Positions 574-40,414 of a stretch of DNA of 64,000 nucleotides are shown piece by piece. Every line of letters starts with the position of its first letter. The stretch's first letter is position 1. The translations under genes and the position numbers were made by a program. Source of the stretch: Alphaproteobacteria bacterium (GTDB lineage Bacteria; Pseudomonadota; Alphaproteobacteria; UBA2966); contig OZ219858.1 in assembly GCA_964291395.2 (NCBI GenBank), positions 672,001 through 736,000 on the forward strand, written 5' to 3'. The notes beneath the pieces are model-generated. The model made no database searches. It was not told the DNA's origin and saw only the letters and a list, made by a program, of their open reading frames with translations.

Positions 574-650
574 TGGCGACCCCGGAGGGATTCGAACCCC
601 CGACCTACGGATTAGGAATCCGCCGCTCTATCCGACTGAGCTACGGGGCC
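574..650 (-). tRNA. tRNA-Arg (anticodon CCT)
   Basis: Reverse complement GGCCCCGTAGCTCAGTCGGATAGAGCGGCGGATTCCTAATCCGTAGGTCGGGGGTTCGAATCCCTCCGGGGTCGCCA; cloverleaf, TTCGAAT T-loop, encoded CCA. Confidence 0.97.
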
Positions 651-17412: not shown

Positions 17413-17565
17413 GCGCACCGGCGCAAGCGCCGCCGCCGCGCGCTGCCCTCTTCCACGGCCCGACCACAACACAAGCGGTCAAATGCCGCATCGTCCCGCC
17501 GGAGGCCGTGCTAGACTGAGGTGGTTGAAAGCGGGGCGGCGGCGTTGAACCCGGATGGTCGGAAC

Positions 17566-18240
17566 ATGAGGGAATCGGAACGGATCTCGTACGAGGACAT
17601 GCGCCGCCAGATGATGGAGATCATCTCTCTCCATGCCTTGGTGGCGAGCGAAGTCACCGGCAGGCACGAGCTCGATGAAGTCGTCATGGGTGCGATGGCC
17701 GACGTGCCCCGTCACGAGTTCGTTCCCGTCGAGATGCGCGACACCGCCTATGTGGACTCACCGCTTCCCATCGGGCACGGCAAGACCATCTCGCAGCCGT
17801 TCATGTGCGCATTGATGACCGATCTCCTCGAACTCGAGCCCGATGACAAGGTGCTGGAAGTGGGCACGGGGTTGGGCTATGGCGCAGCCGTCCTGTCGCG
17901 GATCGCCGGAGGGGTGTATTCGGTGGAAATTCTCAGCGAACTCGCCGAAGAAGCTCGGCGCCGCCTGCGCGCGCAGAATTTCGACGTCACCACGCGAATC
18001 GGCGACGGCGGCTATGGTTGGGCAGACGAAGCGCCTTTCGACAAGATCATCGTCACTGCGGCACCGGAGGTCGTGCCGCCGGTTCTGCTCGAACAACTGA
18101 AAGCGGGCGGACGTATGGTTGTCCCGACAGGCGCCGAGGACGCTCAAATGCTCGCGTTGGTAGAGAAGGACATCGACGGGACTATCGATATCACCGAAAT
18201 CATGGCTGTCGTCTTTGCACCGCTCGTCTTGAGTCATTGA
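17566..18240 (+). CDS. pcm: Protein-L-isoaspartate(D-aspartate) O-methyltransferase
   Basis: VPRHEFVP, TISQPFM, VLEVGTGLGY.AAVL, APFDKIIVTAA. Confidence 0.92.
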   Translation: MRESERISYEDMRRQMMEIISLHALVASEVTGRHELDEVVMGAMADVPRHEFVPVEMRDTAYVDSPLPIGHGKTISQPFMCALMTDLLELEPDDKVLEVGTGLGYGAAVLSRIAGGVYSVEILSELAEEARRRLRAQNFDVTTRIGDGGYGWADEAPFDKIIVTAAPEVVPPVLLEQLKAGGRMVVPTGAEDAQMLALVEKDIDGTIDITEIMAVVFAPLVLSH

Positions 18241-18521
18241 ACTTCTTCAGTCGTTGGGCGCGGACGCCGTTGTCGGAAGTGCCCAAAGCCTCACGTGAGC
18301 GCTCTCGGAGCGCTTGATTGCGGGAGTCAGATCGGAAATGCAGATCCACGGTGCGCTGCCGCCGGGGGCTTATGACCGACTCGAGCTCGCCCGGTGAGGC
18401 GGATTTCGCCCGCCGATCAAAAAATCACGATTTTTCGCTCGTCCCGAGAAAGAATTTTCGTGCGGGATTGAAAGTCGAATGCCTGCACAAGCCATTTGGA
18501 ATCAAGGGATTGGAACAATCC

Positions 18522-18570
18522 TGTGGATAATCCAGGGATAATAATTGGATAATAAGACCAAATATCCCCA
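18522..18570. promoter_or_regulatory. DnaA-box array: one perfect box, two degenerate boxes at 11-bp phasing, and one inverted degenerate box
   Basis: TGTGGATAA at 18522-18530; GGATAAT core starts at 18525, 18536 and 18547; ATATCCCCA at 18562-18570; AT-rich context. Confidence 0.6.
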
Positions 18571-18599
18571 AGAAATTTGCTATGGAATTACTTTTTCGA

Positions 18600-18627
18600 T
18601 TGCAGTAACTCGAAAGATATCTAGAAT
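18600..18627 (+). promoter_or_regulatory. Sigma70-type promoter for candidate ncRNA-1
   Basis: TTGCAG-N16-TAGAAT. Confidence 0.55.
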
Positions 18628-18632
18628 ATGAG

Positions 18633-18825
18633 GTGGATCTTGGAGCCTTCGGGTTGCTTGATCCGGGACCGCAAAGCTTTCGGGTGGCGCGGTCCAGGAG
18701 AGGCGTCAGGAGTACTCTTCGGAGTACGCGCAAAGACCCCGCGTCTGAGCACTTGACGCCTCTTCGCATTTTCGGATCTTTTACTTGAGATCATGATGTT
18801 GCGGCGGGCAGAGCCCGCCTTTTTC
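18633..18825 (+). ncRNA. Candidate structured ncRNA-1 (~190 nt)
   Basis: GGATC..AGCC-TTCG-GGTT..GATCC; GGACCGC..GCT-TTCG-GGT..GCGGTCC; 10-bp AGAGGCGTCA/TGACGCCTCT enclosing GTACTC-TTCG-GAGTAC; GATCTT/GAGATC hairpin; bounded by a promoter and an intrinsic terminator. Confidence 0.7.
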
Positions 18826-18827
18826 TT
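18803..18827 (+). terminator. Rho-independent terminator of ncRNA-1
   Basis: GGCGGGC-AGA-GCCCGCC-TTTTTCTT. Confidence 0.8.
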
Positions 18828-18877
18828 GCGCGCATTTCAGCGACACGCCTCTTTAGACCGCCGCGCCCCGGCGCCCG

Positions 18878-18970
18878 AACAAAGAAAGACCCGGCGCAAC
18901 TTCATCGGAAGAAGTTGTCACCGGGCCTTCCGGCATCAGAAAACGCACCCGCGTCAATGCACTTGAGCAA
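18878..18970 (-). ncRNA. Candidate small RNA-2 (~90 nt), convergent with ncRNA-1
   Basis: Minus-strand promoter TTGACG-N17-TAGGGA (19004-18976); 3' long hairpin GAAGGCCCGG-TGA-CAACTTC..GAAGTTG-CG-CCGGGTCTTT followed by CTTTGTT; its G-U pairs work only on the minus strand. Confidence 0.55.
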
Positions 18971-19001
18971 TGTTATCCCTACCAATTTGGATATGCCCCG
19001 T

Positions 19002-19048
19002 CAACAATATATTGCGATATTGGCGCTGACATTGGACATATATGGTGT
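19002..19048. promoter_or_regulatory. Tandem NrdR-box-like operators
   Basis: CAACAATATATTGCGA (19002-19017) and TGGACATATATGGTGT (19033-19048) versus consensus acaCwAtATaTwGtgt; 31-bp spacing. Confidence 0.55.
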
Positions 19049-19201
19049 AGAAGAAAGATAGTGCCGCGATGTCGTCCGATCCCGTCCGCCGGGATCCTCG
19101 TCCGCACGGCATTGTGTGAATTGTGCAGAAAGCTCGGGCCGCTTTGCGCGCCGGCGCGGGCGGGAGACCCGGCGCCTGTCGCCGCAATGGAGAGTCGAGT
19201 C

Positions 19202-20089
19202 ATGTTCGAAGGCTTCGAGACCCGCCGCGCGAAGGCCAACGGCGTCGAGATCCACTACCGGAAAGGTGGCGAGGGACAGCCCTTACTGCTGCTGCACGGT
19301 TATCCGCAGACGCACGTCATGTGGCACAAGATCGCGCCCGGTCTCGCGCAGCGGTTCACCGTGGTGGCCTCAGACCTGCGCGGTTACGGCGATTCCGAAA
19401 AGCCGCCCGCGGGCCAGGAAAACGTCGGCTACGCCAAGCGTACGCTGGCCCAGGACCAAGTGGAGCTGATGGCGGGCCTGGGTTTCGACAGCTTCTTTCT
19501 CGTCGGACACGACCGCGGCTCGCGCGTGGCGCATCGCATGGTTCTCGACCATCCCGACCGTGTCGAAAGGGTGGTTATGCTCGATACCATTCCCGTGGAC
19601 ACGGCCTTCGAGAACGTCAATGCTGACCTCGCCACCGCATGGTTTCACTGGTTCTTCATGCGTCGCCCGGAACCGTTTCCGGAGACCATGATCGGCAGCA
19701 ATGTCGAGTTCTACATGCGTCATCTGATGGGATCGTGGAGCGTGATCCCCGACGCTTTCACCGACGAGGCTTGGGCGGAATATCTGCGCTGTTTCGAGAA
19801 GCCCGAGACCATCCACGCGTCCTGCGAGGAATACCGGGCCATCACCCTCGATCTGAAACATCATGCGGCGGACCGCGACAAAAAGATCAAGTGTCCGCTG
19901 CTCGCTCTGTGGGGCGGCAGCCGGCACACGCACCCGGGCTGGTCAACCAATGTCGTCGAGCCACTCTCGGCGTGGCGCGAGCGGTGCGAGGACGTTCGGG
20001 GCCGCCCCCTCGACTGCGGGCATTTTCTGCCCGAGGAAAAGCCCGAAGAGACTCTCCAGGAGATCCTCTCGTTCCTCACGGAGGTATAG
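19202..20089 (+). CDS. Haloacetate/fluoroacetate dehalogenase-like alpha/beta hydrolase
   Basis: HGYPQTHVMWH, GHDRG.RVAHR, FHWFF, CEEYRA, GHFLPEE. Confidence 0.85.
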   Translation: MFEGFETRRAKANGVEIHYRKGGEGQPLLLLHGYPQTHVMWHKIAPGLAQRFTVVASDLRGYGDSEKPPAGQENVGYAKRTLAQDQVELMAGLGFDSFFLVGHDRGSRVAHRMVLDHPDRVERVVMLDTIPVDTAFENVNADLATAWFHWFFMRRPEPFPETMIGSNVEFYMRHLMGSWSVIPDAFTDEAWAEYLRCFEKPETIHASCEEYRAITLDLKHHAADRDKKIKCPLLALWGGSRHTHPGWSTNVVEPLSAWRERCEDVRGRPLDCGHFLPEEKPEETLQEILSFLTEV

Positions 20090-40339: not shown

Positions 40340-40414
40340 GGGCGCGTAGCTCAGCGGGAGAGCACTTCGGTGACATCGAAGGGGTCGTAAGTTCAATCCT
40401 TACCGCGCCCACCA
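40340..40414 (+). tRNA. tRNA-Val (anticodon GAC)
   Basis: GGGCGCGTAGCTCAGCGGGAGAGCACTTCGGTGACATCGAAGGGGTCGTAAGTTCAATCCTTACCGCGCCCACCA; cloverleaf with CCA. Confidence 0.97.

Follow-up and report, generated by a model that had tools for sequence, protein, structure and literature searches.

The 64,000-nt window analysed here (Alphaproteobacteria bacterium, UBA2966; OZ219858.1:672,001-736,000 of GCA_964291395.2) carries, at 18633..18825 of the plus strand, a structured small RNA of about 190 nt that we term RNA1 and that was delimited by its fold and by alignment. As judged from sequence, RNA1 is a genuine, previously uncatalogued structured small RNA of Alphaproteobacteria and an independent gene, present as a single copy in the 4.16-Mb genome. 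The locus is defined by features that an earlier sequence-only reading of this DNA had missed, namely a variable array of hairpins in RNA1, a convergent antisense partner, RNA2, and regulatory boxes. On balance, we lean towards the view that RNA1 and RNA2 form an RNA/anti-RNA pair, which would link initiator status and the supply of deoxynucleoside triphosphates (dNTPs) to some output. Coordinates are positions in the window throughout; G, C and L labels denote genomes (G000 being the window's own), contigs and loci, respectively.

Structure and distribution of RNA1

The sequence-only reading had described RNA1 as a stable, trans-acting RNA with three UUCG-capped hairpins, and its structural claims were borne out. 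Hairpin 1 (GGAUC..AGCC-UUCG-GGUU..GAUCC) was found at 18635-18664 and hairpin 2 (GGACCGC..GCU-UUCG-GGU..GCGGUCC) at 18666-18695, and the third, GUACUC-UUCG-GAGUAC, sits within a long AGAGGCGUCA/UGACGCCUCU helix; next come, as claimed, a GAUCUU/GAGAUC hairpin and a GC terminator with a T tract. The plus strand gave a minimum free energy of −95.9 kcal/mol as compared to −69.9 ± 4.4 kcal/mol for 200 dinucleotide shuffles (z −5.96), none of which folded as well (0/200), whereas the minus strand folded less well, at −75.2 kcal/mol (z −4.64). RNA1 also matched no Rfam family, whether RNase P, tmRNA, SRP or 6S, the signatures of which the sequence-only reading had found lacking, or the known alphaproteobacterial sRNAs and riboswitches. 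At the gathering threshold, the sole Rfam matches over the whole window were two tRNA genes at 577-650 (minus strand) and 40340-40411 (plus strand). Over 18400-19100 at E≤10 there were three matches at chance level, the best being L20_leader with 21.8 bits against a cut-off of 58.7, and Rfam 15 at E≤0.01 gave no match on RNA1 or RNA2 over 20 homolog loci. We infer that a coding reading of RNA1, for which ORFs (open reading frames) of 42 and 51 aa could be considered, is to be rejected, because the repeat units described below measure 29 or 31 nt, vary in number and keep no frame. The proposal of a stable RNA with a gene of its own is upheld by the fold and by covarying homologs, not by the reason originally given for it: no gene was said to follow on this strand, and an alpha/beta-hydrolase ORF at 19061-20089 (plus strand) comes next. 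RNA1 would probably act in trans.

The 3' three-way-junction domain (18697..18765, plus strand) was defined by covariation and by the covariance models R1 and R2. It comprises P1 (14 bp, 18697-18710 with 18752-18765), P2 (18712-18717 with 18722-18727), which is closed by a UUCG loop, and P3 (18734-18737 with 18743-18746, plus 18730-18731 with 18749-18750). A genus-specific 3' extension (18766..18825, plus strand) follows, containing the GAUCUU/GAGAUC hairpin and the intrinsic terminator (stem 18803-18819, T tract). Homologs with covariation, on which the sequence-only reading had made its proposal depend, were found both for this domain and for the repeat units. Among 21 domain sequences, 52 double-change cells were counted as opposed to 14.8 ± 3.9 in shuffles (0/500 as high), compensatory changes affected 16/26 pairs, and slid registers gave 38-54% pairing. 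Paired cells amounted to 97.0% versus 89.8% in the shuffles, percentages that count for less than they seem to since the alignment had been fitted to the model, which inflates them. As to P1 with its U tract as a possible RNA1 terminator, six or more U within the 12 nt after P1 were seen in only 8/25 domains.

By blastn, RNA1 was present in 5/5 same-genus and 1/2 sister-genus genomes and in none of the other 34 genomes searched. Model R1, made for the 3' domain, recovered it in 7/13 genomes of the family and 7/23 of the order, these being the same 7 genomes. When other alphaproteobacterial families were surveyed with one genome per family, R1 detected the domain in 9/150 and the broader model R2, built from the 21 sequences, in 13/150; in a phylum-wide sample, 0/150 genomes carried it at E≤0.001. 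Scanning species genomes by pattern yielded 7 stretches. Six came from uncultured alphaproteobacterial metagenome-assembled genomes (MAGs) and scored 73.5-102.9 bits with R1; the seventh, from a Gaiellaceae MAG, scored 11.9 bits and was taken as chance. The same scan gave 24 stretches in metagenomes, 10 of them scoring at least 73 bits with R1, and 0 matches in viral contigs, and blastn of 18690-18990 against the plasmid collection found no match. Several genomes carry 2-3 copies of the domain. At L059/L060 (G150:C67:35161-36103), two full copies lie about 870 nt apart with partial tandem copies between them.

Homologous loci align as a conserved promoter, a variable count of hairpin units of about 30 nt and an almost invariant 70-nt 3' domain. 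Hairpins 1 and 2 are the two cUUCGg units of the window in an alignment of 48 units, with a 6-7 bp outer stem, a 3x3 internal loop, a 3-bp inner stem and a UUCG loop. Counting only units with 3/3 inner pairs and at least 5/7 outer pairs, copy number is 3-4 in other members of the genus, 8 in L038 and L039, at least 7 in L027, which reaches a contig end, and 14 in L037. For L037, Tandem Repeats Finder reported a period of 29, 13.3 copies and a 116-nt higher-order repeat; its flanks are near-identical to those of L038, and copy number is the main difference between the two. Measured from the promoter word, RNA1 ranges from about 190 to about 650 nt across homologs.

The 48 distinct units showed 56 double-change cells versus 22 ± 7, with compensatory change at 6/7 outer pairs. 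Under a model with a 7-bp outer stem, 91.0% of cells were paired versus 81.3% in shuffles, values that are again inflated to the benefit of the proposed structure, here by the pairing pre-filter, which leaves the double changes unaffected; slid registers of the unit alignment were 20-56% paired. The loop is UUCG or a close variant in 48/48 units, with conservation also of the internal loop and of the GCC-UUCG-GGU core. The frequency of CTTCGG is 0.59 per kb genome-wide versus 7-23 per kb in 11/12 RNA1s, and the twelfth, L058, lacks it. Runs of cUUCGg hairpins also lie upstream of the domain in distant homologs (12 CTTCGG in about 520 nt at L051, 7 in about 494 nt at L055); in these distant families the hairpins keep the cUUCGg cap, not the internal loop. 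The array perhaps armours RNA1, or it may bind protein.

RNA2, a predicted convergent partner

About 170 nt past the domain, a second element was present in 16/16 close homologs. It consists of a long GC hairpin, the motif GCGTCAG-N7-CCCG(C/T)GTC-N3-GCAC(T/C)TG and, about 35 nt on, TGTCAACAAT; in plus sense it is a copy of the RNA1 domain minus P2. Read on the minus strand, it predicts a small RNA of about 93 nt, RNA2 (18876..18969, minus strand), which lies about 110 nt downstream of RNA1. Complementarity to the RNA1 3' domain resides in the 5' part of RNA2 (about 18965-18931), and the GC hairpin of RNA2 (about 18930-18888), followed by UUUCUUUG, is predicted to be the minus-strand terminator, a U-rich tail of this kind following the hairpin when the element is read in this direction. 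RNA2 would be transcribed from a promoter at 18976..19004 (minus strand) with TTGACG as −35 (19004->18999), a 17-nt spacer and TAGGGA as −10 (18981->18976). The consensus scan did not list this promoter because position 6 of the −10 is not a T; TTGAC(A/G/C)-N17/18-TAnnnA was found on the minus strand at a fixed distance at 13 loci. The minus-sense fold was better by 6-21 kcal/mol, with 4-11 G-U pairs versus 0-4, in 9/13 homologs, and by 14 kcal/mol in the window (7 G-U pairs versus 1). RNAalifold analysis of 17 RNA2 sequences kept the terminator stem, with compensatory change at 6/14 pairs.

Duplexes between the RNA1 domain and RNA2 reached −48 to −63 kcal/mol, with z values of −3.9 to −6.9 in 12/13 homologs; the outlier, L023, is a poorly delimited sequence. 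The composite word CCCG[CT]GTC-N3-GCAC[TC]TG has exactly two occurrences in 4.16 Mb, one per RNA, and blastn-short with the RNA2 motif found nothing past words of 11-13 nt. When the domains and RNA2s of 8 clades were combined, cognate pairs had a mean of −52.9 kcal/mol versus −43.5 kcal/mol for non-cognate ones, 0/20000 permutations reached the cognate mean, and the cognate partner was the best one for 7/8 RNA2s (column minimum). Cofolding gave a heterodimer change in free energy (ddG) of −4 to −18 kcal/mol in 8/8 clades with 25-41 intermolecular pairs; in the cofolded heterodimer P1 is open, and P2 and the RNA2 terminator persist. Both properties tested for membership among small RNA/anti-small RNA pairs were thus found, namely extended complementarity and co-variation that keeps the pairing. 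Model R3 detected exactly one RNA2 in each of 5 genomes, always beside RNA1.

A matrix made from the RNA2 promoter boxes was scanned over 16 distant RNA1 loci. In four lineages used in the matrix, the box lies 182-448 nt downstream of RNA1 and points back. At L056, L063 and L054, which were outside the matrix set, it lies about 22-35 nt past the RNA1 3' end and points back into RNA1, and transcripts from these boxes are predicted to cross the RNA1 domain in antisense. L064 gave a weak match on both strands, 152 nt past RNA1. This cis-antisense series speaks for antisense pairing to the domain as the feature under selection, and it suggests that the trans partner arose by duplication of the target domain.

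As a kind of system, the RNA/anti-RNA pair is already known, for example from CrfA with SisA-D, and the available part of PMC12559287 names QrrX with Qrr as another independent sponge pair. Like these, RNA1 and RNA2 would be two non-coding transcripts of separate genes with distinct transcriptional inputs, and, as with CrfA and SisA-D, one RNA is predicted to neutralise the other by extended base pairing. Unlike in the CrfA pairs, the two genes are adjacent, convergent and paralogs read from opposite strands, the complementarity involves a whole folded domain (25-41 bp) and not a short seed, the partner is a true cis-antisense in some lineages, and no link to Hfq or an mRNA is known. RNA1 and RNA2 are unrelated in sequence to CrfA and the alphaR8 family, and Rfam gave no match for them.

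Putative regulatory boxes at the two promoters

A pair of predicted NrdR boxes lies at 19002..19048 (minus strand), with the proximal box TCGCAATATATTGTTG at 19002-19017, a 15-bp linker and the distal box ACACCATATATGTCCA at 19033-19048. According to the available part of PMC13584703, an NrdR site consists of two partly palindromic 16-bp boxes with an AT-rich interior, 15-16 bp apart, in which the positions C4, A6, A8, T9, T11 and G13 are highly conserved. The window's boxes match at 6/6 (proximal) and 5/6 (distal) of these positions. Across homologs, the proximal box scores 6/6 in 15/15 RNA2 promoters and the distal one 5-6 of 6, and the linker measures 15 bp in all but one of the 15 promoters, where it is 14 bp. 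Among 20000 random positions in the genome, 1.0% reached a score of at least 5 by chance. The TTG of the −35 forms the end of the proximal box, which thus overlaps the promoter. Box AT content was 0.5-0.8, two distal boxes (0.5 and 0.6) falling below the criterion of at least 63% between positions 4 and 13. The cis-antisense promoters carry box pairs of 6+6, 5+6 and 6+5, all at a 15-bp linker.

The window's genome encodes nrdR (169 bits) and two large-subunit genes of ribonucleotide reductase. The second-best matrix match genome-wide lies about 110 nt upstream of the NrdJ-type gene, whose promoter has a box pair of 6/6 and 5/6 at a 15-bp linker; the second reductase gene, on C3, has no such match. 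All the sequence attributes by which membership in the NrdR regulon was assessed were thereby found, that is, the boxes, their linker and promoter overlap, and nrdR together with reductase boxes in the genome. The RNA2 promoter shares two 16-bp boxes, a 15-bp linker and a proximal box overlapping the promoter with the NrdR-repressed reductase promoters described in the available parts of PMC13584703 and PMC9110341, and differs from them in that its product would be a small RNA and not a reductase or nrdR. The RNA2 promoter is probably under NrdR repression and, since it is covered by two NrdR boxes, RNA2 would be repressed alongside ribonucleotide reductase at high dATP. Elsewhere in the genome, NrdR-like box pairs 31-32 bp apart were seen at G000:C1:2017490-2017537, next to an OmpA-family gene and a hexapeptide transferase, and at C3:836884-836930, next to mnmE and a phosphoribosyltransferase gene; these may be extra regulon members or chance.

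As the sequence-only reading had noted, TTGCAG (18600-18605), a 16-nt spacer and TAGAAT (18622-18627) precede RNA1. We take these as the −35 and −10 of the RNA1 promoter (18600..18627, plus strand), a call based on conservation across genomes, 6/7 of the aligned genomes keeping it; the sigma-70 consensus scan missed it because the −35 matches at just 3/6 positions. Upstream lies a cluster of DnaA-box-like sequences (18522..18576, boxes TGTGGATAA, ATTGGATAA and ATATCCCCA), to which binding of DnaA is predicted. The DnaA box consensus is TTATCCACA; TGTGGATAA at 18522-18530 is a perfect, inverted match to the E. coli consensus, and the weaker boxes at 18544-18552 (ATTGGATAA) and 18562-18570 (ATATCCCCA) have 2 mismatches each. 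The ATATCCCCA box sits inside the word ATCCCCAAGAAAT (18564-18576), and ATATCCCCAAGAAAT also lies upstream of the promoter, beside the boxes. Perfect DnaA 9-mers number only 5 in 4.16 Mb, the RNA1 upstream box among them. In a ranking of clusters (≤2 mismatches, 150 bp), the best genome-wide is upstream of the second reductase gene, on C3, the next is at the origin, and the RNA1 locus ties third.

The inverted pair, TGTGGATAA and, after about 40 bp, TTATCC(A/C)CAAGAAAT, is found in at least 7 lineages, and L037 has 3.5 copies of TTATCCACAAG in 11-bp phase, giving three to four boxes. The promoter word ATCC[AC]CAAGAAAT has 2 occurrences in the whole genome, at RNA1 and upstream of dcd, the latter copy being TTATCCACAAGAAATTT at G000:C2:141649-141665, about 300 nt upstream of the dCTP deaminase gene. 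A structured-looking leader may lie between TTATCCACAAGAAATTT and that gene. A DnaA-box match at a conserved position of the RNA1 promoter is thus present, by comparison with the consensus as generally known, and the RNA1 promoter would be under DnaA-type control. This assignment is weaker than that of NrdR, since no cluster in the genome is strongly distinct from the others. Just upstream of the DnaA-type boxes, AATCAAGGGATTG at 18500-18512 fits the IHF consensus, WATCAANNNNTTR, and similar words occur in L042 and L018.

Proposed switch, alternatives and genomic setting

In the RNA/anti-RNA reading, RNA1 would be a stand-alone, very stable and long-lived small RNA, expressed from a promoter preceded by the conserved inverted pair of DnaA-type boxes, and its 3' domain would be the docking site for RNA2, the 5' hairpin of which would present an antisense image of the domain minus P2. 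Pairing would probably begin at the P3 loop of RNA1 (CCCCGCG), which would contact the loop of RNA2 (GACGCGGG); P1 of RNA1 would then open and a duplex of 25-41 bp would form, which would inactivate or destabilise RNA1, control being exerted by RNA2 on RNA1. Complementary hairpin loops, a loop-loop contact leading to a long duplex and convergent or overlapping genes are shared with the kissing-loop antisense RNAs by which plasmids are controlled, such as CopA/CopT and RNA I/RNA II. Unlike those systems, RNA1/RNA2 is chromosomal, single copy and mostly trans-encoded via a duplicated copy, and the target, RNA1, is non-coding and neither a replication primer nor a rep mRNA. The NrdR boxes at RNA2 and the DnaA-type boxes at RNA1 together lead us to read the locus as a module joining initiator status and dNTP supply. 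A more specific scenario, which we put forward tentatively and regard as open to considerable doubt, is a post-transcriptional switch with DnaA acting at RNA1 and NrdR at RNA2, in which RNA2 would remove RNA1 at low dNTPs; it would couple DNA-synthesis status to replication or cell-cycle control in part of the Alphaproteobacteria and would have evolved from cis-antisense to trans by domain duplication.

NrdR is called a repressor specific for ribonucleotide reductase (RNR) in the available parts of PMC13584703 and PMC9110341. In the switch scenario, RNA1 and RNA2 would be the first RNA members of the regulon described there as reductase-specific. If the RNA/anti-RNA reading is true, NrdR-box promoters could drive a regulatory RNA and not just ribonucleotide reductase. 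Alphaproteobacteria would gain two uncatalogued RNA families, one of them with an unusual expandable cUUCGg array, together with a direct experimental approach to the influence of dNTP supply and initiator status on control at the RNA level. The series from cis-antisense to duplicated trans partner would be a clean natural example of anti-RNA origin, and the two covariance models and the box signature should ease the finding of a cultured carrier. Literature searches, which were loose for NrdR in combination with small RNA or antisense, returned no description of RNA1/RNA2 or of an NrdR-controlled RNA; as far as found, an RNA placed under an NrdR-box promoter, a cUUCGg array of variable copy number and the cis-to-trans partner series are new.

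Several results weigh against the RNA/anti-RNA pair or its proposed control. The strand asymmetry of the second element is neutral or slightly favours the plus strand in 4/13 homologs, and the cognate partner is the best one for just 3/8 RNA1s (row minimum), because one RNA2 pairs strongly with every domain. The partner is not universal, since no RNA2 or antisense box was found within 700 nt at 8/16 distant RNA1 loci and R3 found no RNA2 in 5 other RNA1-bearing genomes. Because the similarity of the two elements is same-sense, paralogy with gene conversion could give co-variation without function; this is countered chiefly by the cis-antisense lineages and by the conservation of the RNA2 promoter and terminator. 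As to control, the sigma-70 consensus scan passes neither promoter, clusters of at least 3 DnaA boxes at ≤1 mismatch were found nowhere in the genome, no DnaA-box cluster in it clearly stands out, and other strong NrdR-matrix matches lie near non-nrd genes. Finally, reductase mRNAs were tried as targets and rejected, the RNA2 5' part and the RNA1 domain pairing with them no better than with 600 random segments; for two leaders, the fraction of the background at least as good was 0.54-0.92. The non-nrd neighbours of the strong NrdR-matrix matches include a PRISE-type epimerase, PhoX and a squalene/phytoene synthase, besides the OmpA-family and hexapeptide transferase genes and the pair of mnmE and the phosphoribosyltransferase gene, between which one match lies.

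The same complementarity and co-variation would also be expected if control were reversed, that is, if RNA2, co-induced with ribonucleotide reductase, regulated mRNAs and RNA1 were a long-lived sponge or decoy, its junction domain mimicking the RNA2 target and the hairpin array only giving stability. The array would suit a stable decoy, and independent sponge RNAs are known in Alphaproteobacteria, CrfA sequestering SisA-D in Caulobacter (PMC12559287, available part). We nevertheless consider reversed control unlikely: RNA1 is the more widespread of the two RNAs, with the domain in 13/150 families and no partner found within 700 nt at half of the distant loci scanned (8/16), the partner in three lineages would be a cis-antisense transcript of RNA1 without an independent seed, and the RNA2 motif matches RNA1 and nothing else in the genome, the blastn-short words of 11-13 nt apart.

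Somewhat less probable again is that RNA1 alone functions, as a multivalent protein-binding or scaffold RNA, and that the second element is a decaying paralog or a DNA-level site with no functional RNA2. Near-identical units varying in number from 2 to at least 14, with a conserved internal loop and GCC-UUCG-GGU core, would fit such a role, as would the distant RNA1 loci without a detectable partner within 700 nt (8/16). There is also a likeness to the multi-site sponges CsrB, RsmY and RsmZ, which have a variable number of repeated hairpins and their own promoter and terminator. Unlike in these, the RNA1 loops are cUUCGg and not GGA, a motif confined to some 3' internal-loop strands of one clade, and the units differ mainly by compensatory stem changes; RNA1 did not qualify as a CsrB/RsmZ-type sponge. 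That distant hairpins keep the cap and lose the internal loop argues against a sequence-specific protein site. Moreover, in at least 15 lineages the second element retains a conserved promoter of its own carrying the two boxes, a conserved hairpin and a U tract on the minus strand; it follows lineage-specific changes of the domain, and promoters of this type are also seen in cis-antisense position.

That the array is a repeat RNA akin to type III antitoxins or belongs to a mobile or defence element, or, as a variant, that the locus is the chromosomal origin and RNA1 its transcript, appears highly improbable. The tandem units of 29-31 nt recall ToxI RNAs, in which repeats of about 30 nt are arranged head to tail before a terminator, and DnaA boxes and an AT-rich stretch lie upstream of RNA1. 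Unlike with ToxI, no toxin gene follows RNA1, its units are simple hairpins and mobile DNA does not carry it; at this syntenic, single-copy locus no nuclease or toxin gene is adjacent (the neighbours are pcm, a TRAP subunit, the hydrolase and ADH), no match was found in viral contigs or plasmids, and the locus did not classify as type III toxin-antitoxin. The origin variant is contradicted by the actual origin context, 155 kb away at C3:845.3-845.7 kb. Scarcely credible, finally, is a cis-acting leader, attenuator or riboswitch for the alpha/beta-hydrolase gene, to which the ORF on the same strand, starting 236 nt past the RNA1 terminator, and a three-way junction superficially like small aptamers would point, since synteny contradicts it (the hydrolase is missing in G002 and G004 and neighbours differ across families), P1 has 14 bp and is uncoupled to an expression platform, the convergent RNA2 gene lies between, Rfam gave no riboswitch match, and RNA1 fell outside this class when tested for membership.

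The conserved gene order around RNA1 is DctP (minus strand), RNA1 (plus strand), in some genomes the hydrolase (plus strand), and ADH (minus strand). In the window, the neighbours are pcm, the TRAP transporter subunit (DctP), the hydrolase and ADH. The hydrolase is absent from the locus in the same-genus genomes G002 and G004, where RNA1 and the second element stay. The pcm gene (protein-L-isoaspartate O-methyltransferase, 17521-18240) lies between DctP and RNA1 in the window's genome alone, and G005 shows a 47-residue pcm remnant. With the hydrolase absent in two genomes and pcm inserted in only one, RNA1 thus has no fixed link to a gene beside it. At distant loci, mesaconyl-CoA hydratase flanks RNA1 at L058, L059 and L062; the opposite flank holds sdhC at L058 and L062 and matched no family at L059. 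Other distant neighbours are a malyl-CoA-lyase-type aldolase, GGDEF-EAL and enoyl-CoA hydratase, in two lineages each, and rpsB in one.

The RNA1 locus was also rejected as a replication origin on the ground that dnaA is distant from it in relatives, at 385-979 kb in three of them. The likely origin (L050 7339-7744, corresponding to G000:C3:845338-845743) is a 400-nt AT-rich gap between hemE (minus strand) and a kinase/pyrophosphorylase gene (plus strand; Pfam Kinase-PPPase). The gap holds a DnaA-box-like cluster, and the minimum of the contig's cumulative GC skew falls there. It is flanked by rho and hemH on one side and by maf, aroE, coaE and an RNase_T-family exonuclease gene, which we take to be dnaQ, on the other. 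In the window's own genome, the dnaA match at G000:C2:173643-174124 is in two pieces in different frames (query 1-38 and 27-161), relatives having one intact dnaA; the split could be a frameshift or an assembly error.

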